A DNA stretch of 64,000 bases, from IMG/VR virus record IMGVR_UViG_3300042868_014220; one strand, 5' to 3'. Positions 8,858 through 64,000 of this stretch are shown piece by piece. The translations under genes and the position numbers were made by a program. Position 1 is the first letter of the stretch, and every line of letters begins with the position of its first letter. This DNA comes from a virus (taxonomy: Duplodnaviria > Heunggongvirae > Uroviricota > Caudoviricetes). The notes beneath the pieces are model-generated. The model did no database searches and was not told where the DNA came from. It worked only from the letters and a program-made list of their open reading frames with translations.

Positions 8858-8890
8858 AACTATAAATACTACGAGTAATGAAAAAAATTG

Positions 8891-8962: not shown

Positions 8963-8969
8963 ATTTTTG

Positions 8970-9041: not shown

Positions 9042-9045
9042 ATTG

Positions 9046-9117
9046 TTATCCCTTAAGGATTCGAACCTCAATTCATTGGCCCAAAACCAATTGTCCTGCC
9101 AATTAGACGAAGGGATA
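9046..9117 (-). tRNA. tRNA-Gln (TTG)
   Basis: Acceptor TATCCCT/AGGGATA; anticodon loop TTTTGGG. Confidence 0.75.
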
Positions 9118-9124
9118 ATTTTTG

Positions 9125-9206
9125 TGGGAGCAGTAGGACTCGAACCTACGAACTCAAAAGAGGGGACATTTACAGTGTCCTGCCATTGCCGCTAGACGAT
9201 ACTCCC
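9125..9206 (-). tRNA. tRNA-Tyr (GTA), type II (bacterial-type long variable arm)
   Basis: Acceptor GGGAGTA/TGCTCCC; anticodon stem-loop GGACA-CTGTAAA-TGTCC; 13-nt variable arm. Confidence 0.75.
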
Positions 9207-9279
9207 AAATAAGTTAAACTAACACCCTGACTCCTTTCGAACTTTGGGGGCTCGTATCATTCATTCTGTGTTAGTTTTG

Positions 9280-9352
9280 CACGCCTGATAGGAATCGAAC
9301 CTATAACACCTGGTTTTGGAGACCAGTGCTCTACCAATTGAGCTACAGACGC
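9280..9352 (-). tRNA. tRNA-Trp (CCA)
   Basis: Anticodon stem-loop CTGGT-CTCCAAA-ACCAG; canonical D-arm TAGCTCAATTGGTAGAGC. Confidence 0.8.
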
Positions 9353-9359
9353 GTATTTG

Positions 9360-9431
9360 AGGTCGGTACAGGAATTGAACCTGTGTAGATAGTTTTGCAG
9401 ACTACCGCCTAAACCACTCGACCAACCGACC
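9360..9431 (-). tRNA. tRNA-Cys (GCA), U73 discriminator
   Basis: Perfect acceptor GGTCGGT/ACCGACC; anticodon loop CTGCAAA. Confidence 0.7.
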
Positions 9432-9437
9432 TTATTG

Positions 9438-9512
9438 TGACCCCGCCAGGATTCGAACCTGGGACTCCCTAGTTAAAAGCTAGGTGCTCTAAACCAACTG
9501 AGCTACGAAGTC
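9438..9512 (-). tRNA. tRNA-Lys (TTT)
   Basis: Anticodon stem-loop CCTAG-CTTTTAA-CTAGG. Confidence 0.8.
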
Positions 9513-9518
9513 AAATTG

Positions 9519-9590
9519 TTGTCACGATAGGATTTGAACCTATGACCGCTTCCGTATCAGGGAAGAACTCTACCGCTGAGTTACGTGACA
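9519..9590 (-). tRNA. tRNA-Ile (GAT)
   Basis: Anticodon stem-loop CTTCC-CTGATAC-GGAAG. Confidence 0.8.
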
Positions 9591-9721
9591 ATTTATTAAA
9601 ATCAATTGTGGGTTTCCATTTCCACTCCGACAACTTCAGTCAATGTGATTTGTGGTAGTGTACCTCTACCTTAGACACTTCGGAACGACCCACTGTATGT
9701 GGTCTGTCGTTAATTGATTAG

Positions 9722-9803
9722 TGGTTAGAACAGGATTCGAACCTGTGACAATACAACCTTTACAGGGTGACATAACCTCTTTGCCATTACGTATTACCTA
9801 ACC
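9722..9803 (-). tRNA. Type II tRNA, anticodon probably GTA (second Tyr-like) with imperfect anticodon stem
   Basis: Acceptor GGTTAGG/TCTAACC, T-arm ACAGG-TTCGAAT-CCTGT, loop CTGTAAA, long variable region. Confidence 0.45.
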
Positions 9804-9808
9804 ATTTG

Positions 9809-9892
9809 CGGAAGCGAAGGGAATCGAACCCCCAATACGTTGCAGTACTACTTGTTTTCAAGACAAGCTCCTCGTCCATTCGGACCACTTCC
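9809..9892 (-). tRNA. tRNA-Ser (TGA), type II
   Basis: Anticodon stem-loop CTTGT-CTTGAAA-ACAAG; long variable arm. Confidence 0.75.
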
Positions 9893-9898
9893 AATTTG

Positions 9899-9974
9899 GG
9901 TGACTAACGGGAGTCGAACCCGTGACCTCTTGAACCACAATCAAGTGCTCTAAACCAACTGAGCTATAGCCAAC
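9899..9974 (-). tRNA. tRNA-His (GTG) with encoded G-1
   Basis: Anticodon stem-loop CTTGA-TTGTGGT-TCAAG; extra 5' G opposite C73. Confidence 0.75.
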
Positions 9975-9980
9975 ATGTTT

Positions 9981-10073
9981 GCTGATTAAAAAGGATTCGA
10001 ACCTTAATCCTACTCCCTATTGTCTTCGGTTAAGAATATCGTCGGGTGGAGTGCTCCATTACACTATAATCAA
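9981..10073 (-). tRNA. Atypical elongated tRNA-like gene (93 nt) with ~20-nt insert in anticodon/variable region
   Basis: Acceptor TTGATTA/TAATCAG, D-arm GTGT-AATGGA-GCAC, T-loop TTCGAAT intact; no canonical anticodon arm found. Confidence 0.35.
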
Positions 10074-10122
10074 TCGGATGCTTCGAATCATCCATTCTCA
10101 AGGTAATTAATCTTGAGTTTTG

Positions 10123-10232
10123 CAGTCAGGACAGGATTCGAACCTGTATGTGATTTGACATGCTTTTTTATAATGCTTCCTAAATCACTTATCCGCCTTC
10201 AGTTTTTGCGTCTACCATTCCGCCACCTAACT
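10123..10232 (-). tRNA. tRNA-Leu-like gene with ~27-nt insertion (110 nt)
   Basis: Acceptor AGTTAGG/CCTGACT, Leu-type D-arm TGGCGGAATGGTAGACGC, T-arm ACAGG-TTCGAAT-CCTGT; internal GTGATTT...AAATCAC hairpin. Confidence 0.4.
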
Positions 10233-10293
10233 AAATTCTAATTCTATACAGTCACAACATGGGACCCTATGAATTAGTAACAGTCTCACCTCG

Positions 10294-10384
10294 TAGTCAG
10301 TAGAGGATTCGAACCTCCCATCTATGTGGCTACCGTATTTGTGGTGACTCGAACACCGCCTCTAAGACTGACCAACATCCGACT
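10294..10384 (-). other. tRNA-like element with two T-arm modules (double-T-arm), no anticodon arm
   Basis: Acceptor AGTCGGA/ACTGACT; hairpins GGTG-TTCGAGT-CACC and GGAGG-TTCGAAT-CCTCT. Confidence 0.35.
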
Positions 10385-10511
10385 ATTTTGAAAAGATATA
10401 TGGTGTCGCTCCACAGCCTCTACAACCTAAGGATTTTGCTCAGAAGGGATATTATCCGCTCCGTACTTATCCGAGTTGCTAACCCTGTCCTTTCGAGACA
10501 GATATCTTTTG

Positions 10512-10584
10512 TGGTACGAACTGGAATCGAACCAGTGGCACAAGGATTTTCAGTCCTTTGCTCTACCTACTGAGCTACCATACC
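10512..10584 (-). tRNA. tRNA-Phe (GAA)
   Basis: Anticodon stem-loop AAGGA-CTGAAAA-TCCTT; D-arm TAGCTCAGTAGGTAGAGC. Confidence 0.8.
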
Positions 10585-10591
10585 ATTTTTG

Positions 10592-10663
10592 TAGCCCCTA
10601 CGGGAATCGAACCCGTCTTTCTAGAATGAAAATCTAACGTCCTAACCGATAGACGAAAGGGCC
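10592..10663 (-). tRNA. tRNA-Glu (TTC)
   Basis: Acceptor GGCCCTT/AAGGGCC... anticodon loop TTTTCAT. Confidence 0.7.
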
Positions 10664-10797
10664 AAATTGACTTTACCTTACAAAGTCTAAGTAGGTTTAG
10701 TTGCGGTCTCTCCTACCTGATGAAGGCTCTTTTTGTGATTAATCATCACAGGCACGTTATTCATCATTTTAACACGAAGCCAACGTGTTGCTCATCG

Positions 10798-10863
10798 TAG
10801 TCAATACAGGATTCGAACCTGCCCTTGGTAATTACTCCCGTGGTGCCGCTCCACTAATTGACT
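10798..10863 (-). other. Short (66 nt) degenerate tRNA-like element
   Basis: Acceptor AGTCAAT/ATTGACT, D-arm GTGG-AGCGGCA-CCAC, T-arm GCAGG-TTCGAAT-CCTGT; anticodon arm absent. Confidence 0.3.
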
Positions 10864-10891
10864 TCTCCAAGATAATTAGTCTTGAAGATTG

Positions 10892-10966
10892 TAGTCCCTG
10901 TAGGATTCGAACCTACGACCTATTGTTTGTAAGACAACCGCTCTAAACCAACTGAGCTAAGGGACT
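10892..10966 (-). tRNA. tRNA-Val (TAC)
   Basis: Anticodon stem-loop GTTGT-CTTACAA-ACAAT; perfect acceptor AGTCCCT/AGGGACT. Confidence 0.8.
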
Positions 10967-11039
10967 GTTTTTTCTAATATGTCAAAGAACCATTTTCTAA
11001 ATCAACGATACAAAGGTAATGTTATTTTCGATATAAACA

Positions 11040-11080
11040 AAAAAACCCCAAACTTTATTTACAAGTTCGGGGTTTTTATA
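11040..11080. terminator. Intrinsic terminator hairpin (aaaaccccaaacttt...aagttcggggttttt)
   Basis: GC-rich inverted repeat CCCCGAACTT/AAGTTCGGGG-like with T-run. Confidence 0.5.
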
Positions 11081-11279
11081 TTTTATTATTTCTAACTAAT
11101 TTTAACCTATTGTATTTACCGAACTCCAATTTCGCACATTGCGATACCAGCTACAAACTTCTTGTTGCTTAATAAACGACGACTTATGTTCCATTGATGT
11201 TCTCATTTTCTAATAATTATAACAATAATAGGAAAAGTTTCTTATTTGTCAAATATATTTTTCAGAGTATTTATAAAAG

Positions 11280-11702
11280 ATGAGAAATTTAAGACAAATT
11301 ATTAAAGAGGAATTATTATTAGAGAAAAAAATTGGTCAGATTAGAGCCTCTCTTGAAATTGCGTTTTTATTTGATGTTATTAGAACAACTCATGCACATA
11401 TTAGAACGACTAGAACAGGTATTGAAAATTACGAAAAAAGAGATATTGGAAATGACGAAATCAATGAACTTATTAATATGTCAAAAAGTGAAATTGCTGA
11501 AAAAATAGCAATGAGAGAAATTGTTCATGAACAAGACTTTGTAATAAAATCTTTAAGATGGCAGTTGGCATTAGCAATTAGAGCTATTCACGTAGATGGA
11601 ACTTATTGGGAATTACTTGTTAAGACTGTTTTCAGAGAATCCAAAGATAATCCATTTAAAGTTGGTGAGGGTCAATTAGTCATTTATTTAGATTTTAGAT
11701 AA
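11280..11702 (+). CDS. Hypothetical protein with N-terminal IIKEEL motif variant
   Basis: Promoter-like TTATTTGTCAAAT upstream; protein-like ORF. Confidence 0.5.
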   Translation: MRNLRQIIKEELLLEKKIGQIRASLEIAFLFDVIRTTHAHIRTTRTGIENYEKRDIGNDEINELINMSKSEIAEKIAMREIVHEQDFVIKSLRWQLALAIRAIHVDGTYWELLVKTVFRESKDNPFKVGEGQLVIYLDFR

Positions 11703-11890
11703 AAAAAGGATAACACTTGTATCTGAATCGTTCCCGTGTTACCCTTGGTACCCATGTGATTAAGCTTGTGTATCTGAATCGTTCTCCTCAATCACAGTAC
11801 AAAGATACAACAAAATTCCGAACCACAAAATTTATTCTATAATTTTTTTAATTGTCTTTAATGAATTGATTACTATCTTCTATTTATAGG

Positions 11891-12907
11891 TTGATGAAAA
11901 AAATTTTATTTATTCTAAAACAAAGAAACATCTATTCAAATGGCGTTTATTCAAACGTTGACAGTGGATTACAAAACTCGGCGAGATTTGTAAATGATAT
12001 GTTGGTTAAAAACAAAGTTGACTCTACACTAGTACAAGTGGTAGATAATAACGAAATCGACAAATATTGTACTATACACAAACCTGATGTTGTAATCATT
12101 GAAGCAATTTGGGTTGTTCCAAGTAAATTTGAGGTTTTAAAGAAACTACACCCGAATATCACTTGGATAATTAGATTACATTCTGAGTTACCATTTTTGG
12201 CAAACGAAGGTGTTGCAATGGAATGGTTAAAAGAATATGTAAAATACGATAACGTATTTATCGGTTCAAATTCAATTTATTTGATTGATGCCTTGTCTCC
12301 GTATTTGGGAACCAACATCATCTATCTACCAAATTATTATAAAGTAACAAGTAAAGAATCTGTAATAAAGGAAAATAATTATGGTGAGATAAATGTTGGA
12401 ATCTTTGGAGCAATAAGACCAATGAAAAATGCATTAACCCAAGCGGTTGCTGCAATCAATTATGCTAATATGAATAATCTAAAATTAAGATTACATATAA
12501 ACACGGCAAGAGTTGAACAAAAGGGTGAAAACGTATTGAAAAATTTAAGAGCTTTGTTTGTTGATACAAGACACGAATTAGTTGAACATGCATGGTTGAA
12601 ACATGAGGATTTTGTTAAATTGGTTGGGACAATGGATATCTGTTTACAAGTATCAATATCCGAAACCTACAATATTGTTGCTGCCGATGTAGTTAATCAA
12701 AGAGTTCCTGTTGTAACCACAGATGAAATTCCATTTGTTAATAGTTTTAGTTCTGTTAATTCTAACAAAAATGTTGAAAACATTATCTACACTATGAAGT
12801 TTAATCTAAGATTCAAAACTGTGTTAACCATCTTAAATAAGTTCTATTTGTTTGTAAATTCAAAAAGAGCTAAAATGGTTTGGATGAATTTCATCCATAA
12901 TTTTTAG
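11891..12907 (+). CDS. Hypothetical protein (338 aa)
   Basis: Long ORF; no motif recognised with confidence. Confidence 0.5.
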   Translation: MMKKILFILKQRNIYSNGVYSNVDSGLQNSARFVNDMLVKNKVDSTLVQVVDNNEIDKYCTIHKPDVVIIEAIWVVPSKFEVLKKLHPNITWIIRLHSELPFLANEGVAMEWLKEYVKYDNVFIGSNSIYLIDALSPYLGTNIIYLPNYYKVTSKESVIKENNYGEINVGIFGAIRPMKNALTQAVAAINYANMNNLKLRLHINTARVEQKGENVLKNLRALFVDTRHELVEHAWLKHEDFVKLVGTMDICLQVSISETYNIVAADVVNQRVPVVTTDEIPFVNSFSSVNSNKNVENIIYTMKFNLRFKTVLTILNKFYLFVNSKRAKMVWMNFIHNF

Positions 12908-12988
12908 TACCTTGGGTCGGACTCGAACCGACACGACTTTCGCCACAAGTTCCTAAGACTTGAGTGTCTACCATTTCACCACCAAGGC
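12908..12988 (-). tRNA. tRNA-Leu (TAG), type II
   Basis: D-arm TGGTGAAATGGTAGACAC, anticodon stem-loop CAAGT-CTTAGGA-ACTTG, long variable arm. Confidence 0.75.
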
Positions 12989-12991
12989 ATT

Positions 12992-13083
12992 TCATTATCG
13001 CTTCAGCCACATCGGGAAAGACGCCTCCCCCGCGTTGTTTAAGTGTATATCTTGCGTCGTATCTCACTGAGCTACGATAATGA
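12992..13083 (-). other. tRNA-like element with 9-bp acceptor stem and non-canonical T-loop (possible pseudo-tRNA)
   Basis: TCATTATCG...CGATAATGA terminal helix; internal TAGCTCAGTGAGA D-arm-like segment. Confidence 0.3.
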
Positions 13084-13087
13084 TTTG

Positions 13088-13161
13088 TAGTCCCAGTAGG
13101 ACTCGAACCTACGACCTACGGTTTAGAAAACCGTTGCTCTATCCAGTTGAGCTATGGGACC
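13088..13161 (-). tRNA. tRNA-Arg (TCT)
   Basis: Anticodon stem-loop ACGGT-TTTCTAA-ACCGT. Confidence 0.8.
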
Positions 13162-13168
13162 ATTTTTG

Positions 13169-13248
13169 TACCTGGGGAGAGACTCGAACTCTCATTCACA
13201 AGGAACTGAGGCTTAAACCCAGCGTGTCTACCATTTCACCACCCAGGC
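13169..13248 (-). tRNA. tRNA-Leu (TAA), type II
   Basis: Anticodon stem-loop CTGGG-TTTAAGC-CTCAG; D-arm TGGTGAAATGGTAGACAC. Confidence 0.7.
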
Positions 13249-13250
13249 GA

Positions 13251-14024
13251 CTATAGTTTAAAACTCTCTTCAAACAATGTATGACTTTCGTTTTCTTCTG
13301 TATTCATTGTATGTAGAAGTAATATGGTTGAATTGTTAAAATTAAAAATAAACCTACCATCAGAACCTTCGTTGATTTCCCAACCACCAAAATGAGATTC
13401 TAATTCTCTATAACACCAATCTTCAATTCCTGCAGGAACAGCATCACCTGTTTCCTCAAATGAACCTTCAATATATCCAGAATCACCACCACCATTATAT
13501 GGTATAGTCAAAATACCATCTTCAGGAACTTCAATCTCTTTCATATCTGTTTCCATCCAACGCTCAAATCTTTCGATATCATCAGCAGCATCATATTCAA
13601 CTGAGTTTTCATTACCTCTACCATAATAAGAAAACCAATATACAACAGTAATTTCTCTATTAGGACAATCAATTTCAAGGTCAATTTTTTGATAATTTAC
13701 CATATCAATATCCACAAAATCTATTGATTCAAACTTACCTGATTTTATAACCTTGTCCATAATTTTTTGTAAAATTGGAGTTAGATTTTCAGGTATGTCT
13801 GCTCTATAGTTATTTTCAAAATGAGTAACGTATTTCCATTTAATATCATCTGATGTTAGTTCTTGTTGTTGAATATCTAATTCAAAACCTACCACACCAA
13901 CACTCATACCTAATGAACCAAGGTAGTTACATATCCTATTAAGATATTTTTTTTCGTCTAATGTTAAAATTCCATTCATAATTATAAATATCAGTCTTCT
14001 ATTTTCATTGTCCTTAGCATCCAC
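13251..14024 (-). CDS. Hypothetical acidic protein
   Basis: Protein-like ORF. Confidence 0.5.
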   Translation of the reverse strand: MDAKDNENRRLIFIIMNGILTLDEKKYLNRICNYLGSLGMSVGVVGFELDIQQQELTSDDIKWKYVTHFENNYRADIPENLTPILQKIMDKVIKSGKFESIDFVDIDMVNYQKIDLEIDCPNREITVVYWFSYYGRGNENSVEYDAADDIERFERWMETDMKEIEVPEDGILTIPYNGGGDSGYIEGSFEETGDAVPAGIEDWCYRELESHFGGWEINEGSDGRFIFNFNNSTILLLHTMNTEENESHTLFEESFKL

Positions 14025-14338
14025 TGAGGTCTTTTATTCTCTAATAAATTGTCAATCCACTCCTTTGCGGATGGGATATAGTTATTACAATCTTCTCTGA
14101 CGTGTTGTTCACCGACATAACGAGTGTAAACTATTTTCCCATCACTATTGGTAAATTCGGACCCAAATTTCTTCTCCATCTCAAAAATACCTTCACTATG
14201 GTGTCTAAACATTCTGTGTAAAGAATCCGCAATCCAACCTTTTGTTTCATCCAACCATTCGTGTAAATGGATGTAATCTTCAGGTTTTCCACCAAACTTT
14301 TTAACCGAACTTTTTGCGTGTATGTTAGGATGTGCCAT
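13991..14338 (-). CDS. Hypothetical His-rich protein
   Basis: ORF; possible metal-binding His residues. Confidence 0.45.
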   Translation of the reverse strand: MAHPNIHAKSSVKKFGGKPEDYIHLHEWLDETKGWIADSLHRMFRHHSEGIFEMEKKFGSEFTNSDGKIVYTRYVGEQHVREDCNNYIPSAKEWIDNLLENKRPQWMLRTMKIED

Positions 14339-14345
14339 AGTTTAT

Positions 14346-14801
14346 TTAATAATCTTTTCCTTTGTGAAGTAAGTAAGTTGCGTAATATTTTAAGTCCGTT
14401 CCTTGATAATAAATTACAACATAATAATCTAAATCTCCTGAGGGAATATAATTAATCCATATCTTGTCTCCGCACTCATTCACAGCTGAAATTAATCTTA
14501 AACAATCACGAGTACTATCTTCATCCCACTCTTCAATAATTGAAAACTTCATAACAATACCTGCCCTTGTCTTTGAAAACGTAAATGAAGAGTCAGTTAG
14601 GTTAACGTGAAAGTGGTCATATTCCCATTTAGTTTTTTTCTTCGGTTTTCTAATCTTAACATTTTCTGCATCTTCAATCATTTTTTTTGAATTTTTGAAT
14701 TGGTATCTGTATATGGAATCCGCTTCTAAATTCTGACCATTTGCTTCGGACAATCCGAAGATAAATAGGAACATAAGTCCTATGATAAATTTTAACTTCA
14801 T
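14346..14801 (-). CDS. Secreted/lipoprotein-like hypothetical (start set at MKLKFIIGLMFLF signal peptide)
   Basis: Upstream part of track ORF overlaps tRNA-Ala; internal Met followed by hydrophobic signal. Confidence 0.5.
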   Translation of the reverse strand: MKLKFIIGLMFLFIFGLSEANGQNLEADSIYRYQFKNSKKMIEDAENVKIRKPKKKTKWEYDHFHVNLTDSSFTFSKTRAGIVMKFSIIEEWDEDSTRDCLRLISAVNECGDKIWINYIPSGDLDYYVVIYYQGTDLKYYATYLLHKGKDY

Positions 14802-14815
14802 ATTATTTTTTTTTG

Positions 14816-14890
14816 TGGAGACAATGGGTATCGAACCCACCTCAAAAACATTGCAAGTGTTTTTCGCCAAGCCTTGGTACATTTGCCCCC
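14816..14890 (-). tRNA. tRNA-Ala (TGC) with G3:U70
   Basis: Acceptor GGGGGCA/TGTCTCC with G3-U70 wobble; anticodon stem-loop AAACA-CTTGCAA-TGTTT; atypical D-arm. Confidence 0.6.
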
Positions 14891-15077
14891 GTTGTTTCTT
14901 AAATGGAATCGCCATTTGTTGCTTTGTAAATTGCAATAACCAAACCAACCACCCAACCAACAATAACTAAAGTGATTAGGACATCTTTCATTGATAATTT
15001 TCTTAACATATTCATACTATTTTTTTATTTAGGTCACAAAGATACTATAAAATTCTTAATTACCAAATTTATTTTTG

Positions 15078-15160
15078 AGCCTCCTGACGGATTCGAACCG
15101 CCGCGTCCTTACGAAACCTGATTACAAGTCAGGTGCAATCAACCACTATGCGAAGGAGGC
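15078..15160 (-). tRNA. Type II-length tRNA with apparent anticodon TGT (Thr) - identity ambiguous
   Basis: Acceptor GCCTCCT/AGGAGGC, anticodon stem-loop CCTGA-CTTGTAA-TCAGG, ~14-nt variable arm, T-arm GGCGG-TTCGAAT-CCGTC. Confidence 0.45.
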
Positions 15161-15169
15161 ATGTTTTGG

Positions 15170-15241
15170 CGGTCTATGCGGGAGTCGAACCCGCCTCACT
15201 ACCGTGACAAGGTAGCATCCTAGCCGATGAACGAATAGACC
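15170..15241 (-). tRNA. tRNA-Asp (GTC), CCA encoded (15167-15169)
   Basis: Anticodon stem-loop CTACC-TTGTCAC-GGTAG; acceptor GGTCTAT/ATAGACC. Confidence 0.75.
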
Positions 15242-15464
15242 AAATTTCCCCACCCTGAGATTATGGATGAGTGGATTTTAACGGTTTAGTTTTCTTAAAA
15301 ACAAACACATTAGTGTCTTACCACATGAAACTATAAATCAACACTACTGGGAGGAATTGTGTCAGTTCCTTGGTCCCAAGACCCCCTCTGTAAAATCGTG
15401 GAGGGCTACAACTACATCATTGTTAAGAAACGATGCCAAATCTGTGAGTATCTCTTACTCATTG

Positions 15465-15538
15465 AGCGAGTAGTCGGTCTCGAACCGACCCTATTTCACA
15501 TTGGAAGTGTGATGCCATACCAACTAGGCGATACTCGC
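15465..15538 (-). tRNA. tRNA-Gly (TCC)
   Basis: Acceptor GCGAGTA/TACTCGC; anticodon stem-loop TCACA-CTTCCAA-TGTGA. Confidence 0.7.
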
Positions 15539-15973
15539 AATTTTTAATTTAAAATGTAAATCTCTATGACAATTAGAACACAAAATATCACACTTATCAA
15601 TTTCATTTAATATTTTTGTCTTATTTCCTCTCCTAATTAAAGTAGAAACATCAATATCTTTTTCCTCAGGATTTCTGTGATGAAAATCTAAAACCCAATA
15701 TCTATTCTCACCACACACCTCACATTTTAATGTTTTTTTATAATCCGTAAACCATTCAATTATTGATTGTGTAAATACTTTTGCTTTATCAATATATTTT
15801 TTTTTATTTTTTTCATAGTGTTTTTTTCTATAATCACTTTGACATTTTCTACAGATATGTTGAAACATTTTTTCTTTTCTATCATATCTCGATGCGAAAT
15901 GGATATCATCCAACGGCAATTCTAACTCACATTTAGGACATATTTTTATTTTCATATCTATAAATACTTCCAA
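15524..15973 (-). CDS. HNH homing endonuclease
   Basis: Zn-finger CPKC...CRKC plus LDFHHRNPEEK...CSNCHRDLH HNH motif. Confidence 0.75.
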   Translation of the reverse strand: MEVFIDMKIKICPKCELELPLDDIHFASRYDRKEKMFQHICRKCQSDYRKKHYEKNKKKYIDKAKVFTQSIIEWFTDYKKTLKCEVCGENRYWVLDFHHRNPEEKDIDVSTLIRRGNKTKILNEIDKCDILCSNCHRDLHFKLKIASIA

Positions 15974-16006
15974 ATTATAAAAAAACTTGGAAGTGTTAAT
16001 TATTTG

Positions 16007-16090
16007 CTGGCACGGTAGGATTCGAACCTACGGTGTGGTTGCCCAGTCAGGTTAACAGCCTGATGCTCTCGGCCTCTAAGCGACGTACCA
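16007..16090 (-). tRNA. Type II-length tRNA with apparent anticodon GTT (Asn) - identity ambiguous
   Basis: Acceptor TGGTACG/CGTGCCA, anticodon stem-loop TCAGG-CTGTTAA-CCTGA, ~14-nt variable region. Confidence 0.45.
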
Positions 16091-16097
16091 ATATTTG

Positions 16098-16170
16098 TCG
16101 AAAGTGTTAGATTCGAACTACGCCCCAACCTCCCAAAGGTTATGTGCTACCTGACTACACCACACTCTCG
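16098..16170 (-). tRNA. tRNA-Pro (TGG), weak T-stem
   Basis: Anticodon stem-loop TAACC-TTTGGGA-GGTTG; T-loop TTCGAAT. Confidence 0.55.
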
Positions 16171-32432: not shown

Positions 32433-32512
32433 AACAACTAAAACTATGATAAAAATCCTCATCTTAATCAGTGGGGATTTTTTTATTCCATAATTTTTAT
32501 TATATTTGCATC

Positions 32513-33724
32513 GTGAATCAATTTTTATACACATTAGAACAATACTCAAGGACTGGCCATCTATTCAAACAAGACCATCCTACACTACCATTGTCTATAT
32601 GGAACTACACACCTGAAGTTCAATATGGTCAGTCGTGGGATGAGGTTACTTTGCAGTGTCGTGGATTGGTTACCGATAATGAAGGTAATATTGTTGCTCG
32701 TCCATTCAAAAAATTCTTCAACATAGAAGAAGGTAAACATACTCCAACTGAAGAGTTTGATGTGTTTGAAAAAATGGATGGTTCATTGGGTATTCTTTTT
32801 TATTATGAAGGTGAATTGTTAACTGATGAGGAAAGATATAACATATGGTTTAATAACAATTACGAAACAGGTATGGAAAGGTTCTTTGACCCAAATAAAC
32901 TACCAGAATTTGATAATCCATATTATAAACCAACACCAAAAACAAAAGGTGAATGGATATTTGCAAGTCGTGGTTCATTTACTTCGGACCAATCAAAAAA
33001 AGGTCGAGAATTACTTGAAAAGTATAACTACCAAAGATTGGATACTAACTACACTTATTTGTTTGAAATAATCTTCACCAAAAATAGAATAGTTGTGGAT
33101 TATGGTGATATGGAAGATTTGGTATTACTTGGAATGATACATACCAAAACTGGATATGAGGTTGATATACATTTGGGTAATGATAGAGATATCAGGTTTA
33201 AAAACTTGGTAAGAAATCTTGGATTTAACATCGTTAAAAAATATGATGGTATAAAGGATTACAACGCCTTAAAAGAAATGGTGGAAAACAATGCTGAAGG
33301 GTTTGTTGTTCTATTTTCTAATGGGGATAGAATGAAAGTTAAAGGTGAAGAGTATATTCGTCTTCACAAAATAATGACAAATATATCAACCACTGGTGTA
33401 TGGGAAATGCTGTCTTCAGGTGGTGATATTAACGAACACTTAAAAGATGTTCCTGACGAATTTTATCAAAAAGTTAAACAATATGCAGACAATTTGAAAT
33501 ACGCTTATTTTCAAGTATCAGAGCATTGTGGAAAATCTCACGATTATTTCCGTTATGGAAAATATGGTGATAGGGAAATTGAACCAACAAAGAAAGAATT
33601 TGCGGAGCATGTTATGAAATATTGTCATCCTCCATATCGTGCGGTGATGTTTGCAATGTGGGATGGAAAACCATATGAAAAGATTATTTGGCAAATAATT
33701 AAACCTGAATTTAAAAAACTTTAA
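32513..33724 (+). CDS. ATP-dependent RNA ligase-family nucleotidyltransferase (GTG start after TATATTTG promoter)
   Basis: Motif I KMDGS (KxDG), motif IV EGFVV, motif V KVKGEEYIRLHK. Confidence 0.65.
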   Translation: MNQFLYTLEQYSRTGHLFKQDHPTLPLSIWNYTPEVQYGQSWDEVTLQCRGLVTDNEGNIVARPFKKFFNIEEGKHTPTEEFDVFEKMDGSLGILFYYEGELLTDEERYNIWFNNNYETGMERFFDPNKLPEFDNPYYKPTPKTKGEWIFASRGSFTSDQSKKGRELLEKYNYQRLDTNYTYLFEIIFTKNRIVVDYGDMEDLVLLGMIHTKTGYEVDIHLGNDRDIRFKNLVRNLGFNIVKKYDGIKDYNALKEMVENNAEGFVVLFSNGDRMKVKGEEYIRLHKIMTNISTTGVWEMLSSGGDINEHLKDVPDEFYQKVKQYADNLKYAYFQVSEHCGKSHDYFRYGKYGDREIEPTKKEFAEHVMKYCHPPYRAVMFAMWDGKPYEKIIWQIIKPEFKKL

Positions 33725-33930: not shown

Positions 33931-34121
33931 CAAACGAAAAACATTTAGAAGAAATCTTAATGGACGCTCACAAGTTAAAAATTAAAAACGAAGTTTTTGA
34001 CTTGGTAGATGAAATCTCCAAAAAAAATCCTACAATGTCAATGGTCGATTTATTTGATTTGGCACTAAAAACAATAAAAAACAATGGAATTATTAGCAAC
34101 ACATCCAGTCAAGAAATCTGA
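33927..34121 (+). CDS. Small hypothetical protein
   Basis: ORF. Confidence 0.4.
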   Translation: MTNEKHLEEILMDAHKLKIKNEVFDLVDEISKKNPTMSMVDLFDLALKTIKNNGIISNTSSQEI

Positions 34122-34485
34122 TTTAGGGTTTCACGGAAATTTATTTGGGGGGAAACTTTTATCTTGGGTTGATGCAGCCGTTGCAGCTTATGCAATGGAG
34201 AAATGTCATACCCAAAACATGATTACAATTGCAATTGATGAATGTGTATTCAAAAAACCTGCAAAGGAAAAACAATTGGTTAAAATCTATGCTGAGATGA
34301 CCAGAGTTGGGAACACCTCCGCAACATTTAAGATTGAGGCAAGAGCTTTCAATGTTTTTAGAGGTGATGAGGTCGTTTTATTGGCAACAAAGATGACATT
34401 TGTTAGAGTAGATGAAGAAGGGGTTCCAATACCCATCTCCGAACAAGTTAAAAGATTATTTAAAATACCTGAATCAAAATTATAA
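34084..34485 (+). CDS. Hotdog-fold acyl-CoA thioesterase
   Basis: HGNLFGGKLLSWVDAAVAAYAME typical 4HBT/YbgC-like. Confidence 0.65.
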   Translation: MELLATHPVKKSDLGFHGNLFGGKLLSWVDAAVAAYAMEKCHTQNMITIAIDECVFKKPAKEKQLVKIYAEMTRVGNTSATFKIEARAFNVFRGDEVVLLATKMTFVRVDEEGVPIPISEQVKRLFKIPESKL

Positions 34486-34707: not shown

Positions 34708-35334
34708 ATGAATAAAATACAAGTAACACAACCAACATTTCTAATCAATTTAGATAATCCAACAGAAACTAGTTATGTACCTATGGAAGGTAATTGGAAA
34801 ACAATCACATCTCAAACATACCTAAATGGGTTTCCTGAAATAAAGGATGATGAGATTCTTTATGTCTATAAAAATAATAGAGGTTATATCTATAAAAATA
34901 ATATAGGTTATATTGCAATAAGTACAAATAACGAAAAATATAATCAGATTATTGATGATGTTTATAAATCTTATATAAAATCATTTTTTGAAGGACAATT
35001 AAAAGAAAATTATATATCAAGTGGTTATGATTTTGACGATTACTATACAGCTATAATGGATGTTCAAAATTTTTTAGGATTGCCTGGACCAATATCTCAA
35101 AAAGAATTCATCAACAAAATCAAAACAGATGGGGATTTTTCTAAGGAGTGGGGACTAAAGATTGAGGAAAGAGAGTTGAGTTTGGAAGAGAGAACAAAAT
35201 ATAAAAAGAAAAGAGACGGTATCGTTCGTACTTTTGCATCGTATACTCACCAAATGTTAGACGGTTCAAATATCCCAACCAAACTAATCACAATAACATA
35301 TAAAAACGAAACAATAGAAAGTTATGAAAATTAA
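34708..35334 (+). CDS. Truncated ThyA-derived paralog (no catalytic residues)
   Basis: KEFINKIKTDGDFSKEWG...RELSLEER...NIPTKLITITYKNETIESYEN aligns to insertion segments of thyA 36420-37559. Confidence 0.55.
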   Translation: MNKIQVTQPTFLINLDNPTETSYVPMEGNWKTITSQTYLNGFPEIKDDEILYVYKNNRGYIYKNNIGYIAISTNNEKYNQIIDDVYKSYIKSFFEGQLKENYISSGYDFDDYYTAIMDVQNFLGLPGPISQKEFINKIKTDGDFSKEWGLKIEERELSLEERTKYKKKRDGIVRTFASYTHQMLDGSNIPTKLITITYKNETIESYEN

Positions 35335-35536
35335 TAGACCAAAAGATGGTGACTATAGATATAAAACTAAGTTTTTATGGTTCCCTAAAAGATTTGATGG
35401 CGGGTGGTATTGGTTAGAAATTGTAACCATTAGACAAGTATATTTTTATTATGGACTAATCCCAGGATGGTATAATGTGTGTTTGTCAAACCCAGAATCA
35501 GGTCTCCCAATAAGTATTGACCCCATTAAAAAATAG
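35324..35536 (+). CDS. Small hypothetical protein
   Basis: ORF starting in ATAGAAAGTTATGAA context. Confidence 0.4.
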   Translation: MKINRPKDGDYRYKTKFLWFPKRFDGGWYWLEIVTIRQVYFYYGLIPGWYNVCLSNPESGLPISIDPIKK

Positions 35537-35542
35537 AAAGTT

Positions 35543-35872
35543 ATGAATAAAGAACAACAAGAATTGGTGGGTGATGTTTATAAGAACTATGAAAAATGGT
35601 GGAAATCTTACTCTCCAGGTGGTGCTCCAATACCACTATCAAAAGAAAAATTCATCAACAAATGTAAAAACGATACAGAGTTCTCTGGAAGGTGGGGATT
35701 AAAGATTGAAGAACGAGAATTAGATATGATGGAAAGATGGAAGATAGCCGACCTAACACCTAATATGGAAGAATTTGATTTTGCTAATTATATGTGCGAC
35801 AAACACAATATCCCAACCAAACTAATCACAATAACATACAACAACAAAACAATAGAAAGTTATGAAAATTAA
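35543..35872 (+). CDS. Truncated ThyA-derived paralog 2
   Basis: DVYKNYEKWW...EKFINKCKNDTEFSGRWGLKIEERELD...NIPTKLITITYNNKTIESYEN. Confidence 0.55.
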   Translation: MNKEQQELVGDVYKNYEKWWKSYSPGGAPIPLSKEKFINKCKNDTEFSGRWGLKIEERELDMMERWKIADLTPNMEEFDFANYMCDKHNIPTKLITITYNNKTIESYEN

Positions 35873-36059
35873 AATAGATGGAGGTGATTTACTAAGACAT
35901 ATGATGTTTTGGGGTGAAAAGACAGATGATGACTGTATTAAAATGGCAACTAATGATGAAGGTGAATTAAATGCTGAACAAGCTCTTATTAATATGTTGG
36001 AGAGAGATAATGCAGTAGAATTCAATAAGGAAGTTATTGAAGGATTAATGAATCTTTAA
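35862..36059 (+). CDS. Small hypothetical protein
   Basis: ORF. Confidence 0.4.
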   Translation: MKIKIDGGDLLRHMMFWGEKTDDDCIKMATNDEGELNAEQALINMLERDNAVEFNKEVIEGLMNL

Positions 36060-36150
36060 AAAAATATGAATAAATTAGATAAACCCCAACCACCTGCACC
36101 ACCAAAAGATAGAATCTATATAGAATCTTCTTGGTTAGAAACCATAACAT

Positions 36151-36423
36151 TTGGGTTATACAAAACTAAAAAATACCATAGAAAAGATGAACAAATTAGA
36201 TAAACAAGATTTAACTTCAGGTATAATTTACGTACCATATATAATTGAAACAACATCAACTTCAATTAACAACACTACTGTATGGTATAAAAATAAATGG
36301 AAAAATCTATGGTTAAAGATAAAGTTCTTCTTTAAAAAACCTGACGAGTTAAAACGATTTGAAAAATACTCTAAAAAATTAATAGACCCAAAATTTTACC
36401 AAGAAATAAAAATTACAAAATGA
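36151..36423 (+). CDS. Small hypothetical protein
   Basis: ORF. Confidence 0.4.
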   Translation: MGYTKLKNTIEKMNKLDKQDLTSGIIYVPYIIETTSTSINNTTVWYKNKWKNLWLKIKFFFKKPDELKRFEKYSKKLIDPKFYQEIKITK

Positions 36424-37559
36424 ACAACCTAGATAAACAATACACAGACCTACTCCAAGACATATTGGATAATGGTGTAACTAAAAAAGATAGAACAGGA
36501 ACTGGTACAATAAGTGTATTCGGTAGACAAATACGTCATAAAATGAGTGATGGTTTTCCATTACTTACAACTAAGAAGATGCCATTCAAAACAATTGTAA
36601 CTGAATTGTTATGGTTTTTAAGAGGTGATACAAACATTAAGTATTTGGTTGATAATAACTGTCATATTTGGGATGGTGATGCTTATAAGAATTATTGTAA
36701 GCACTTTATGGATGAATACTTAGAAAAAAATAAATTAGGTGAGTCTTATAGAAATAGTTTAAGACCATATCCAATAGAAAAATTCATCAACAAAATCAAA
36801 ACAGATGATGAGTTTGCTAAACAGTGGGGTGAATTAGGTCCAATTTATGGTAAGCAATGGAGAAAATGGACTAAAAAGAAAATGTATCTATCAACAGATG
36901 GTTCATATGAGAATATCTACGATGAAGCTGACCAAACTGTTATTGACCAAATATCAATTCTAATTAACGACCTTAAAACAAATCCAGATTCAAGACGATT
37001 AATGGTTAATGCTTGGAATGTAGGTGAATTAGACCAAATGGTGCTTCCTCCTTGTCATTATGGATTTCAGGTTTATACAAGAGAGTTGAGTTTAGATGAG
37101 AGAGTACAGTTATTAGGAGTAGAAAAAATCAACACAACTGACGCTGGTTATTATGAACATAGCTACGCTAAATTAAAAGTAGATGAAGAGAATATTCCAA
37201 CCAGAGCAATCTCTTTAATGTTCAATCAACGTTCAGTAGATACATTCTTAGGTTTACCATTCAACATAGCATCATACGGATTATTGTTAGAAATCATTGC
37301 TAAAACAGTTAATATGGTTCCCGATGAATTAATTGGTAATTTAGGAGACATACATCTTTACCTTAACCATATTGAACAAGCAAAGGAACAAATTGGTAGA
37401 GAACCATTTGAGTTATCTAAGTTAGTAATAAATTCAGGTAATGAAAACTGGCATTTGTTAGACATAGATGAAATTATTAATACCTTTAATACCGATATTA
37501 CATTTAAAGTAGATGGTTATCAGTCCCACCCCACAATTAAAGCACCATTAAGTAATTAA
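36420..37559 (+). CDS. thyA: Thymidylate synthase (ThyA) with two large lineage-specific insertions
   Basis: GTGTISVFGRQIRH, ELGPIYGKQWRKW, LPPCHYGFQVY (Cys nucleophile), LGLPFNIASY, C-terminus HPTIKAPLSN. Confidence 0.85.
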   Translation: MNNLDKQYTDLLQDILDNGVTKKDRTGTGTISVFGRQIRHKMSDGFPLLTTKKMPFKTIVTELLWFLRGDTNIKYLVDNNCHIWDGDAYKNYCKHFMDEYLEKNKLGESYRNSLRPYPIEKFINKIKTDDEFAKQWGELGPIYGKQWRKWTKKKMYLSTDGSYENIYDEADQTVIDQISILINDLKTNPDSRRLMVNAWNVGELDQMVLPPCHYGFQVYTRELSLDERVQLLGVEKINTTDAGYYEHSYAKLKVDEENIPTRAISLMFNQRSVDTFLGLPFNIASYGLLLEIIAKTVNMVPDELIGNLGDIHLYLNHIEQAKEQIGREPFELSKLVINSGNENWHLLDIDEIINTFNTDITFKVDGYQSHPTIKAPLSN

Positions 37560-38186: not shown

Positions 38187-38572
38187 AATTATCAATCACA
38201 CCCAACAATCAAGGCACCATTAAGTAACTAAAAGATAATGTTTAGTTAATATGTATGTTAATCCCACACCATACTTATTAAAAATCGGTAAATTATCTAC
38301 ATACTATACATTATATTATTAATTACAAGTCCAAGTAAAGAACCATTATCTGGTGTTAAAATTGAATTGGTCGGCACAAATAAAACATACTATACTAATC
38401 TAAAAGGACAGGTATCAATTCCGTATAATTCTAATATTAGTTTGAGTTACATATCCTATAGAACAAAAATAATAAACAAGGATAGTATAAAACCTTTTAT
38501 TATATTAACGCCTAGATAAAAAATATGAAATTAAGTTTGGAACATTCCAAACTTTTTTTGTATATTCGCATT

Positions 38573-38920
38573 ATGGAAATTAAGAAAATTACATATAAAG
38601 AAGTTGAACATGAGTTTTTTAAATTAAAACCTGATTTGTTAGATGAATTTGCAACTTATTATGGTTGTTTTATTAAAGAAGAATTGGTCGGTATTGTTTC
38701 ATATGTGGAACATCCTGCAGTAATTTATCTTTGTCACGCTTATGTTAAAGAAGAACATAGAAGTAAAGGTATCTATAAATTATTGTGGCATTACAGGGAT
38801 TCTAAAATTGCTAAAACTGAGAAAGTGGTATATGCTCACTGCAATGTTGATAGTTTGAAATATTTCATCAACAACGGATACAATATTGATAAAGCCCTAT
38901 TTAAAGTAGTAAAAAGATAA
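38573..38920 (+). CDS. GNAT-family N-acetyltransferase
   Basis: VKEEHRSKGIYKLL (R-x-x-G-x-G/A-like motif A). Confidence 0.5.
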   Translation: MEIKKITYKEVEHEFFKLKPDLLDEFATYYGCFIKEELVGIVSYVEHPAVIYLCHAYVKEEHRSKGIYKLLWHYRDSKIAKTEKVVYAHCNVDSLKYFINNGYNIDKALFKVVKR

Positions 38921-62386: not shown

Positions 62387-64000
62387 CTAGTCTTTTATAA
62401 ATTTGGAATAGAATCTTAATCCACTTTTCTTAACCAATTGGATGATATAAAATCCTTTTTGTAATTCTTCGGTATTAATTTTTATTAATTCCCCGTTAAA
62501 TTGACTCAAATCTATTTCTTGGATAGTTTTTCCTTGAATATCGGTAATTAAGATTGTTTCATAAGTTTGTAATTGTCCTTGAATTAGTAAATTCAAATTT
62601 TTTTGATTTGGATTAGGGTACAAAGCCTTTATACCAGTTTGGGTATTGCTGTGCTCTAATTGTACAATATTACTAAAGGTAATTAATCCACTATTTTCTG
62701 TAATTCTGAGTTGGTAATAGGTTGAATTATAAGCCAGATGTTGTGTGTTTATAAATTCATAGTGTGTCAATGAATTGGTGTTATTTAATGCCGTGATATC
62801 ACCTATCGGATTAAAATTGAAACCATCATAAGAAATCATAATCTCATATTTATCGATGTCACTTTCATCGGCAACCTGCCACTCAATATAATGATGATTC
62901 ATTACTTGATAGGCTTCAAAAGAAATTAATTTGACGGGTAAAGGAATACAAAACGGAGTTAAAATAAAGGTGTCTCTAATGGTTTGGCAAATGTTATTTT
63001 CTATTTGCCACACAAGACTGTAAGTTCTTAGTGAATCCCCTGTGAAGGTGGCATTAGGATTGTGAATATCACTGATAGTGCCTCCCGAACCGCTTATAAT
63101 AATCCATGTGCCCTTAGAATTTCCGTTTGTTGATTGTGCATTTAATTGACAAGACCCACAGTGAGTATCAGAATCTGATGCAGATGAAATGTGTCGGTCA
63201 ATAATGGACGAAACAATGAATAATCCATTGGTTGTACCCGCACCTCCTCTCGTAGCTCCATTCGCTATAAATTCTGTTAATGCTGCAGAAGTAGTAGTAC
63301 CATTTACACCACCATTTGCTATTCTTGTTGGGCTCCCGTTTGAGATAGAAATAGTTCCACCGCCACCTCCACCTCCTGGACCTTCTGCTTCGTTACTAGT
63401 TATTAATTGATTACCTCCATTACCGCCATTTGTAAATAAGTTTAAAGTGTTTGCTATTGTGCCATCAACGCTTAATAAGACTGTACCACCACCGCCACCA
63501 CCACCAGGAGCATCATTGTGTCCCGCCGTTGTATTGGGTGAGTTTCCTCCACTTGAGGTAATAACGCCACTTCCTGATAAATTACCATAGCAAAGAATCA
63601 AAACTATTCCACCCCCGTGGCCACCTCTTGTTGCTGCCGAATTATTACCATCACCTGCACCTCCTCCGCCTCCAAAAAATGTTCTAGTATTGCTAAAAAC
63701 CAAAGGCCTTCCACCATAGCCACCCGAATTTCTTCTCCAATCTCCACCCCAAAGACTATTACCAGGTGCGGTTATTATTGCATCTCTATTAGCCCCAGAA
63801 TAAGTATATCCCCCTCTACCTCCTCCAGATGAAGTATTTGTTGAAAATGTACCTCCTTCCAAATTCCATGCGGTTGTCCAATTAATTGGTCCGTTGTCCG
63901 GATTTCCTAGTCCGTTCCAAGCAGATACAACCCCACCATTTGCACCACCCCCACCACCAGCATTGTGAGAATTACCCCCTCCCCCTCCATTTGCAGGAGC
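62387..64000 (-). CDS. Partial CDS (N-terminus outside window): glycine-rich repeat protein with Bacteroidota T9SS C-terminal sorting domain
   Basis: Reading frame open to window edge; GGGGG/NGGNGG repeats; C-terminus ...LYPNPNQKNLNLLIQ...ITDIQGKTIQEIDL...LQKGFYIIQLVKKSGLRFYSKFIKD typical of the Por-secretion CTD. Confidence 0.6.
   Translation of the reverse strand, partial: APANGGGGGNSHNAGGGGGANGGVVSAWNGLGNPDNGPINWTTAWNLEGGTFSTNTSSGGGRGGYTYSGANRDAIITAPGNSLWGGDWRRNSGGYGGRPLVFSNTRTFFGGGGGAGDGNNSAATRGGHGGGIVLILCYGNLSGSGVITSSGGNSPNTTAGHNDAPGGGGGGGTVLLSVDGTIANTLNLFTNGGNGGNQLITSNEAEGPGGGGGGGTISISNGSPTRIANGGVNGTTTSAALTEFIANGATRGGAGTTNGLFIVSSIIDRHISSASDSDTHCGSCQLNAQSTNGNSKGTWIIISGSGGTISDIHNPNATFTGDSLRTYSLVWQIENNICQTIRDTFILTPFCIPLPVKLISFEAYQVMNHHYIEWQVADESDIDKYEIMISYDGFNFNPIGDITALNNTNSLTHYEFINTQHLAYNSTYYQLRITENSGLITFSNIVQLEHSNTQTGIKALYPNPNQKNLNLLIQGQLQTYETILITDIQGKTIQEIDLSQFNGELIKINTEELQKGFYIIQLVKKSGLRFYSKFIKD

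Follow-up and report, generated by a model that had tools for sequence, protein, structure and literature searches.

Putative mobile cassettes in a phage thymidylate synthase and an upstream family of mini-proteins apparently derived from it

Homing endonucleases have a classic hot spot in the thymidylate synthase (TS) gene. Both I-TevI and I-BmoI bind a homologous target in TS, and the bases critical to it fall within the codons for the conserved Arg and Asp of QR/SxD (PMC3664794); co-conversion around endonuclease cuts, along with intronless homing, is established in T-even phages (PMC2988022). In the td gene of phage T4, exon 1 runs to 183 codons (549 nt; PMC1851640), and in the TS protein it is the small domain that is highly variable in extent and structure (PMC6479881). 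In-frame insertions of another sort are the Rickettsia palindromic elements (RPEs), selfish elements of ~150 bp found in frame in unrelated protein-coding genes (PMC10969869). Here, we compare these systems with the thyA locus of a 64,000-nucleotide stretch of tailed-phage DNA (Caudoviricetes; IMG/VR record IMGVR_UViG_3300042868_014220), hereafter the window. Its TS, ThyA, has two variable regions, I1 and I2, and upstream of thyA lie two short genes, mini1 and mini2, whose products (the minis) resemble these regions.

On balance, we favor the following explanation. The surface elaborations of ThyA would be exchangeable translated cassettes, the minis would be a selected family of TS-derived proteins, and the exchange would be linked to conserved handles and to endonucleases. 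Endonuclease-associated mosaicism and in-frame selfish inserts are already known; the mini-protein family appears, from sequence searches, to be new. No earlier description of the mini family or of the cassettes was found in Pfam, PHROGs, the PDB, or the literature searched, and we know of no stable family of expressed, exon-1-like, core-deleted TS proteins.

ThyA, its variable regions, and the mini family

ThyA matches PF00303 over profile positions 1–265 of 266 (E = 2e-95, 319 bits against a cut-off of 24.3). An earlier note on this DNA, made from the letters alone, had credited ThyA with all catalytic motifs, and these are present, namely PPCH with the catalytic Cys212, DSRR, and QRSVD. Residues C212, R25, R192/R193, R271, D274, and N282 are invariant across the clade alignment (A2). 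ThyA is, to judge from these motifs, an active-looking long-form TS. Among PDB entries, it is closest to the long-form TSs 3uwl, 4dq1, and 1lca, of E. faecalis, S. aureus, and L. casei, and many metagenomic phage ThyAs of 355–450 amino acid residues (aa) are 62–82% identical to it. The clade sample consists of 79 non-identical ThyAs, of which 76 are readable at the I2 site; DNA surroundings were compared across 1.35 Mb of related sequence. Below, P and L numbers are our own identifiers for related sequences.

The earlier note described two large insertions in thyA. The first of them, I1, does not stand as an insertion. It aligns with the small-domain insertion of 3uwl, 4dq1, and 1lca. In phmmer alignments, query residues 87–141 run through 3uwl and 4dq1 with the domain unbroken, and the ~50-aa insertion between IWDxW and GxLGxxYG that marks the long form is alignable with that of solved long-form TSs. 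It follows that I1 is the ancestral variable small domain and nothing novel. Its loop varies from 33 to 84 aa and is mosaic across the 79 ThyAs. I2, in contrast, is an insertion relative to the solved TSs: none has a counterpart, and every PDB alignment of ThyA breaks between residues 225 and 264. Neither region is peculiar to this gene. The inserts are common to hundreds of the metagenomic phage ThyAs, and I2 is occupied in 76/76 readable clade ThyAs, by 31–58 aa with conserved edges and a hypervariable middle. A third site, I3 or site 3, lies between EQIG-R and EP and is occupied in ~19 clade ThyAs and empty in ~38. I2 (site 2) and I3 share the edges R-E-L-[ST]-x-x-E-R ... [IV]-P-T-[KR], and their middles are unalignable. 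The ThyA of the window is thus like the long-form TSs of the Lactobacillus casei/Enterococcus faecalis type in the position of I1 and its alignment with the small-domain insertion. It is unlike them in two respects: its loop is a mosaic cassette that alleles exchange with one another and with mini genes, and one or two additional inserts, I2 and I3, are absent from every solved TS.

The three open reading frames (ORFs) named in the earlier note are present (Table 1), and BLASTP, hidden Markov model (HMM), and DNA repeat searches agree with its statement that the minis align to the insert regions of ThyA and the strand that follows. By composition-adjusted BLASTP, ThyA residues 87–137 match mini1 84–149 (E = 1e-8) and ThyA 248–276 match mini1 178–206 (E = 2e-3); for mini2, the E values are 2e-8 in the I1 region and 9e-4 in the I2 region. 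The two minis are 43% identical to one another (BLASTP, E = 7e-27). An HMM of the mini family matches ThyA in exactly two pieces, with HMM positions 11–65 at I1 and 63–120 at I2 (full-sequence E = 7e-15); in four further genomes, it matches ThyA at E values of 7e-10 to 1e-17. The reservation in the earlier note that the similarity might be limited to low-complexity K/E-rich segments does not hold. ThyA scores 51.5 bits, against a maximum of 9.7 in 5000 global shuffles and 8.5 in 5000 insert-confined shuffles, so that a score far above that of every one of the 10,000 shuffles rules out a low-complexity artifact of K/E composition. At the DNA level, a 90-nt repeat occurs in three copies (at 35088, 35632, and 36764), as does a 42-nt repeat (at 35152, 35696, and 37062); there is a 17-nt exact match between 35113 and 36789, and AATATYCCAACC is found three times.

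The homology between minis and ThyA spans the small-domain helices, a β-hairpin, and the strand equivalent to NQRSVDTF; the minis of L004 retain PTRAISLTYNNKT. Residue by residue, mini2 G10–G52 corresponds to ThyA G86–G137 and L53–E57 to F216–T220; then comes the cassette, followed by N89–N109, corresponding to N258–G278. Here, NNKTIESYEN of mini2 (family consensus NDKTIESYE) parallels NQRSVDTFLG of ThyA by conservative changes. That is, a mini is ThyA minus residues 1–85, 138–215 (a segment with DSRR and the catalytic Cys), and 279–379. The absence of the catalytic core, as noted earlier, is clear: E138–G215 is missing, there is no Cys nucleophile, the Arg residues are lacking, and the equivalents of R271 and D274 are Lys and Glu. 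By this correspondence, the minis are TS-derived proteins and not TS enzymes.

The family is large. For mini2, there are at least 5,126 homologous clusters at 90% identity, and an exhaustive profile search gave 538 mini representatives at 50% identity, the best 150 of the 538 being 88–217 aa long. The N-terminal part varies, and the C-terminal ~70 aa are strongly conserved. In the canonical mini module the ratio of nonsynonymous to synonymous divergence, dN/dS, is 0.10–0.34, at dS of up to 0.7; the minis are under purifying selection. An AlphaFold2 (AF2) model of the mini is compact, with five helices and three strands and a predicted local distance difference test score (pLDDT) of 88, and no structural relative of this model was found. 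No match to mini2 was found by tblastn among 50,697 phage genomes, and none in cultured phage. The minis have no Pfam (E ≤ 0.1) or PHROG match, PF00303 included, and the mini-family profile picks up no TS among PDB sequences even at E ≤ 10. In mini-seeded contigs, the mini is always 0.2–4 kb upstream of thyA on the same strand. Arrays hold 2–6 copies (two in the window and in L004, three in L007, and six in L008), with flanks that are 86–93% identical in DNA and with unrelated cassette interiors. Among 80 ThyA-seeded clade viral loci, a mini lies within 8 kb in eight, again always upstream and on the same strand.

The earlier note offered two readings of the minis. Taken literally, its first reading makes them recent, local, decaying internal-deletion copies of the resident thyA. 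The minis do adjoin thyA and share DNA repeats with it, and the locus has other rearrangement scars. However, they are only ~40% identical to the resident ThyA, and the same two-mini arrangement is found in L004, whose RNA ligase and ThyA are 41–47% and 62% identical to those of the window. With thousands of members that have intact ORFs and the low dN/dS given above, the minis are not pseudogenes, and the literal reading is effectively refuted; we consider it hardly credible. The part that stands is the TS-derived, core-less nature of the minis, and the part that falls, in view of the number of clusters, the selection, and the confident model, is their local and recent origin.

The second reading runs in the reverse direction, with an independent mini domain split-inserted into an ordinary thyA to create I1 and I2. 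A compact, autonomous, and confidently modeled fold would suit it, as would the clear status of I2-type modules as insertions when set against all solved TSs. Nonetheless, we think it very unlikely, for the following reasons. In I1, the conserved helices can be aligned to the small domain of Firmicute TSs of solved structure. The flanking strands and the C-terminus of the minis mirror the core TS by position (FQVYT, AISLMWNQRSVDTF). Long ThyAs are ~10 times more widespread than minis, and the mini profile finds nothing outside the clade. The residue map, the ancestral character of I1, and the far wider spread of long ThyAs therefore argue for a direction from ThyA to mini. A split-inserted small domain is, then, unlikely for I1 and possible for the I2 cassette.

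Several observations on individual minis may be added. Mini1 is 95% identical to mini2 over its 3′ 66 nt, and its N-terminal extension contains, at 34860–34907, a 24-nt tandem duplication (92% identical) encoding YVYKNNRGYIYKNNIGY. A rare empty site within the mini family is seen at L008 9204–9455, where an 83-aa mini has no cassette and a plain hairpin, WGVTIYSVVEDGNIRIGINYNDKTIESYES. At L018 5718–6569, a mini-like N-terminal part (EEFINLLLVDDEFYSKWG and an ELTYEER...PTPKRKL cassette) is joined within a 284-aa ORF to ~140 C-terminal aa that are unrelated; P0391 resembles this fusion type, which may be a divergent branch of the mini family. The motif AAACAATAGAAAGTTATGAA is found at three gene junctions (35309–35328, 35528–35547, and 35847–35866). 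The IESYE codons that end each mini hold the ATG of the next ORF and a purine-rich stretch, with stop and start overlapping, and translational coupling may be partly behind the DNA conservation of the mini C-terminus.

Cassettes shared between alleles, sites, and genes

I1, I2, I3, and a C-terminal variable stretch assort independently on a near-invariant catalytic core. In the ThyA of the window, I1 matches P0124 and P0132, I2 matches P0139, and the C-terminal stretch matches P0128, P0130, and P0180. When the edges are stripped, the cassette middles fall into 47 similarity groups, and 18 of these span different site types. The cross-site cassette pairs are between ThyA site 2 and minis (29 pairs), sites 2 and 3 (four), and site 3 and minis (three). 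Individual cases are as follows. An I1 cassette is common to mini P0052 and ThyA P0185 (82% over 85 aa, E = 6e-51), and the cassette of mini1 is 60% identical over 60 aa to that at site 2 of ThyA P0185/L004 (E = 8e-22). The DNA of mini1 and of the L004 thyA is ~90% identical from exactly AGAGAGTTGAGT to CCAACCARA and unrelated outside. Mini L008_m4 is 83% identical over 42 aa to site 3 of the L006 ThyA, and the I2 cassette of the window ThyA itself is found in mini P0268 (E = 7e-23).

In all 79 alleles, the inserts are in frame and stop-free despite their unrelated sequences. They are therefore most simply taken as translated inserts and not as introns, inteins, or elements like RPEs or transposable elements of the miniature inverted-repeat type (MITEs), and we read I2 as an exchangeable in-frame cassette, RELSxxER...IPT[KR]. 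This point is missing from the earlier note, as are the mobility of cassettes from gene to gene and the link to homing endonucleases taken up below. Other classes of insertion were considered and rejected. Inteins have an N-terminal Cys or Ser, a C-terminal His-Asn followed by Cys, Ser, or Thr, and a Hint fold of at least ~130 aa. The inserts are 31–70 aa long, start with R-E-L-S, and end with I-P-T-[KR], and Pfam shows no Hint domain. A td-type group I intron or other RNA element is rejected in that there is no Rfam match in the 32–39 kb segment and the inserts are in frame and stop-free. A palindrome or hairpin of the RPE sort is rejected as well, with fold z scores of −0.33 to +0.33 and no inverted repeats at the cassette ends.

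The DNA bordering I2 is conserved at synonymous positions. In the flanks of I2, the homozygosity of synonymous codons over the 79 ThyAs is 0.84 (5′ side) and 0.72 (3′ side), compared with 0.50–0.54 in the distal core (permutation P < 5e-5 and 2e-4, respectively). Minority codons are nearly fixed at the flank: E222 is GAG in 71/79 and L223 is TTG in 65/79.

A cassette is also present in an unrelated gene. The RNA ligase of the window has, in the hairpin after motif I, a 46-aa insert. This insert and the cassette at site 3 of ThyA P0132 are 79% identical (38/48, E = 4e-22). The insert is flanked by a 9-bp direct repeat, AAGGTGAAT, at 32808–32816 and 32946–32954. The site is cleanly empty in 6/6 other RNA ligase orthologues among the fetched loci; the closest of them (60% identity) reads ..YYEGEW.., with TAT GAA GGT GAA TGG once and a single GGTGAATGG. 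The cassette variant ..YNIWFNNNYETGME.. recurs at site 2 of the L047 ThyA, in minis P0392-4, and in the mini-like fusion ORF of L018, and a word-index protein search with the 48-aa RNA ligase cassette as the query returned four candidates, all of them minis with the same cassette. Within the 1.35 Mb of related sequence, no host genes were found beyond ThyA, minis or mini-like ORFs, and this one RNA ligase. The junctions at site 3 of ThyA can be compared directly: 20/20 occupied alleles have AGA(GAR) at both junctions, and empty alleles have a single GGT AGA GAA CC. The flanking repeat is 3–6 bp there versus 9 bp at the RNA ligase. Such variation in repeat length would be compatible with microhomology to the cassette's own AGAGAG 5′ end.

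It is natural to ask whether these inserts are selfish mini-elements, RPE or MITE analogues that transpose in frame with the help of an enzyme acting in trans and for which thyA and the minis are preferred hosts. In-frame inserts of 105–138 bp in unrelated genes, with empty sites, flanking repeats of 9 bp (RNA ligase) and 3–6 bp (ThyA site 3), and conserved end motifs, are what such elements would leave. The cassettes share with RPEs their size, their in-frame insertion in surface loops of unrelated enzymes, and a tolerated peptide (PMC10969869). They differ in being non-palindromic, without inverted repeats, and very narrow in host-gene range, and in having hypervariable middles, conserved peptide edges, and evidence that points to homologous exchange and not to transposition. 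Neither terminal inverted repeats nor a stable hairpin is found, the repeat length is inconsistent and explicable by the microhomology just mentioned, and in the related sequence no gene other than those listed is occupied and no transposase candidate was seen. We regard transposition of this sort as distinctly unlikely.

A further rival is programmed diversification, in which mini arrays serve as a donor library and gene conversion like that of pilE/pilS varies the TS surface, which would evade a host inhibitor or sensor. The likeness to pilE/pilS and vlsE is evident, in that core-less partial copies are arrayed upstream of the full gene and conserved DNA brackets the variable segments. The arrays of 2–6 minis have near-identical flanks and unrelated cassettes; the minis lack the core yet keep both variable regions and the handles; and the 29 I2–mini cassette pairs are shared across genomes, with DNA-conserved cassette flanks. 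The differences are that the partial copies here are selected proteins, that no same-genome transfer was observed, and that the target is a viral metabolic enzyme. Minis are complete and apparently translationally coupled ORFs under purifying selection, and the canonical cassette is nearly invariant. Although mosaicism is seen in every ThyA, minis are close by at only ~10% of clade loci, and donor and ThyA of the same genome were not seen to be identical at any of the loci holding both. In addition, we know of no TS-targeting defence system, which also counts against a donor library. We think this reading unlikely, and return to the one we favor, that is, handle- and endonuclease-linked exchange.

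The td-type intron site and a proposed mechanism of exchange

T4 TS (1tis_A) residues 167–283 align to ThyA 262–376 of the window, and this alignment and the length of td exon 1 together place the td intron point at G278/L279, between 37253 and 37254. The stop codons of both minis fall exactly at the equivalent of this point. The critical codons of QR/SxD are here those of R271 and D274, 9 codons 3′ of I2, and 37 of the 48 bases of the homing-site homologue match what we take to be the T4 td site. The same region shares in the excess synonymous conservation. ORFs like I-TevI (domains: GIY-YIG, I-TevI zinc finger, NUMOD3, I-TevI DNA-binding) lie within 60 bp of thyA in ~13/90 loci, and I-TevI-like genes are enriched in mini-bearing loci, with 4/7 versus 5/66 (Fisher P = 0.0034).

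The locus is thus like the I-TevI/I-BmoI systems and the intronless homing and marker exclusion of the free-standing Seg and Mob enzymes, in that I-TevI-like genes abut the thyAs of relatives and the homing site is near I2. As in T-even intronless homing, there is mosaicism, partial duplication, and gene splitting (PMC2988022). The locus is unlike td and other homing systems in having no intron (Rfam being negative) and no endonuclease gene in the window, and in that short translated cassettes are exchanged. We suggest that the cassettes are probably shuffled by recombination at this hot spot, as follows. Breaks at the TS homing site or elsewhere would be repaired from allelic or ectopic (mini) templates. 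The repair would be by double-strand-break repair or gene conversion, with tract ends set by conserved handles or microhomology, and the likely trigger would be I-TevI-like homing endonucleases that target the QRSVD-coding stretch. By this route, cassettes would be passed from one ThyA allele to another, from one of ThyA sites 2 and 3 to the other, back and forth between minis and ThyA, and now and then to other genes, such as that for RNA ligase. A cassette would be tolerated in a surface loop because it would fold as a self-contained helical hairpin. The minis would have arisen from exon-1-like thyA fragments at the td-type insertion site, lost the core, and become functional small proteins. 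More speculatively, they may be a free-standing counterpart of the accessory module of ThyA, with ThyA or the module's own partner as the binding target, they may be ectopic cassette templates, or both.

Several points weigh against this explanation. No cassette is shared by a mini and the ThyA of the same genome at any of 13 loci holding both (0/13), so intragenomic conversion is not observed. The flanks could instead owe their synonymous conservation to recent sweeps or to constraints on mRNA or translation. The near-invariance of the canonical mini2-type cassette suggests a protein function rather than a passive store of cassettes. The AF2 model of ThyA, made from a 32-sequence clade alignment, is poor (pLDDT 55), and no packing of I1 on I2 can be read from it, unlike in the mini model. 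The association of minis with endonucleases rests on small counts, 4/7 against 5/66. BLAST finds no homing endonuclease gene in the window, where the best profile match has E = 0.055. Finally, an endonuclease that targets thyA leaves the RNA ligase insertion unexplained.

The earlier note had also called thyA a locus of repeated rearrangement, and further cases bear this out: a triplicated thyA start region in the window, partial duplications in P0144, P0156, L038, and L081, and a split thyA in L007. In L081, L038, and L018, the stretch upstream of thyA contains truncated duplicates of the thyA 5′ part. In P0156 (513 aa), the segment bearing I1 is tandemly duplicated within the protein, and two different I1 cassettes are present; P0144 (443 aa) has an N-terminal partial thyA copy ending in I1. 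The duplication breakpoints of both fall within I1, and from their layout, both look like intermediates of unequal recombination. At L007 6675–8814, thyA is split within the I1 loop into 105-aa and 270-aa ORFs by a 323-aa Zn-ribbon/DUF7487 ORF. The latter has an HNH-like C-terminal motif, and the C-terminal thyA fragment starts with MNKE.., as the minis do. In the window, the triplicated start region holds MNKLDKQ-like codons, and a 45-aa ORF (36066–36203) is partly paralogous to the 70-aa ORF at 35324 (repeat families D14 and D18). This paralogy and the triplication suggest repeated tandem duplication of a unit of mini and small ORF. Two further repeat pairs are found, 35338–35357 with 36101–36120 and 35410–35427 with 36131–36148.

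If the favored explanation is true, it provides an origin for a family that comprises at least 5,000 clusters and lacks relatives in Pfam, PHROG, and the PDB, namely a core-stripped TS that ends at the td intron site, and this origin suggests a function in binding or modulating TS or its partners. Handle-bounded translated cassettes would swap between sites and genes, a way for proteins to evolve that is neither that of introns or inteins nor that of palindromic in-frame elements or diversity-generating retroelements. Their exchange would be tied to the best-studied homing-endonuclease target and so be tractable by existing I-TevI/I-BmoI methods. It is tempting to go further, to a new class of non-palindromic, translated, in-frame mobile cassettes that spread via repair of homing-endonuclease breaks from allele to allele, site to site, and into unrelated genes as well, with minis, as exon-1 relics turned into a selected family, serving as a reservoir, as TS modulators, or as both, and that diversify the surface of a viral enzyme; we offer this only tentatively and consider it doubtful as a whole. 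On the favored explanation, the cassette sites and self-folding inserts may also serve protein engineering as natural permissive sites and modules.

The gene block and its surroundings

The window is a segment of an uncultured phage genome, tRNA-rich and of low GC content (~30%). Among the 50,697 phage records, only Flavobacterium phage vB_FspM_immuto shows a relative at the DNA level, its thyA. This phage, the closest one in culture, has the ThyA inserts only. The two minis, thyA, and several ORFs of 45–90 aa form a tightly packed block with all genes on the + strand (Table 1).

Table 1. Coordinates of the thyA block and of the RNA ligase gene in the window
Feature	Position	Strand	Basis or remark
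RNA ligase gene (PF09511)	32471–33724	+	
RNA ligase in-frame cassette, 138 bp, GELLTDEERYNIWFNNNYETGMERFFDPNKLPEFDNPYYKPTPKTK	32810–32947	+	β-hairpin after motif I
mini1, 208 aa, diverged paralogue with ~75-aa N-terminal extension	34708–35334	+	BLASTP against mini2
mini1 cassette	35170–35280	+	
70-aa ORF between the minis, phrog_11031; start codon overlaps mini1 stop	35324–35536	+	PHROG E = 6e-10
mini2, 109 aa, canonical member of the TS-derived core-less mini family	35543–35872	+	
mini2 cassette	35714–35818	+	
thyA start region, three copies of ~43 nt, ATGAAYAANYTAGATAAAC	36044–36086, 36165–36207, 36398–36440	+	Repeat families D2, D14, D15, D18
mini/ORF70 junction fragments	36375–36392	+	Repeat search
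thyA, 379 aa	36420–37559	+	PF00303 full-length match
I1, aa 87–137: conserved helix GDAYKNY, hypervariable loop, conserved handle EKFINKIKTDDEFAKQWG	36678–36830	+	
I2 cassette, R221–T261, RELSLDER...ENIPT, in β-hairpin just after catalytic Cys212	37080–37202	+	
Homologue of I-TevI/I-BmoI homing site, codons Q270-R271-S272-V273-D274...	37227–37274	+	

A scan of the 32–39.5 kb segment for promoters and terminators gave sites no commoner than expected by chance. At 38533–38554, just inside the start of a GNAT acetyltransferase ORF (38525–38920), is a perfect palindrome with a 9-bp stem, AAGTTTGGAACATTCCAAACTT, followed on either strand by a run of T residues. If this is a bidirectional terminator, as it may be, the called start of the GNAT ORF may be wrong.

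Elsewhere in the window, 23 tRNA genes for most amino acids and a gene for tmRNA are found at 7560–16170 (− strand) and 987–1377 (+ strand). SmpB is encoded on the related contigs L002/L003 (5512–5949), and this phage group may carry its own trans-translation pair. GC content rises to 0.45 at the end of the window, 63001–64000; the other GC-rich block, at 9–11 kb, is the tRNA array. A gene for a 4HBT-family thioesterase is near thyA both in the window (34084–34485) and in phage immuto (L001 6238–6666). In a neighbor clustering, this thioesterase is a conserved neighbor at 11 loci, amid otherwise very variable surroundings of thyA.

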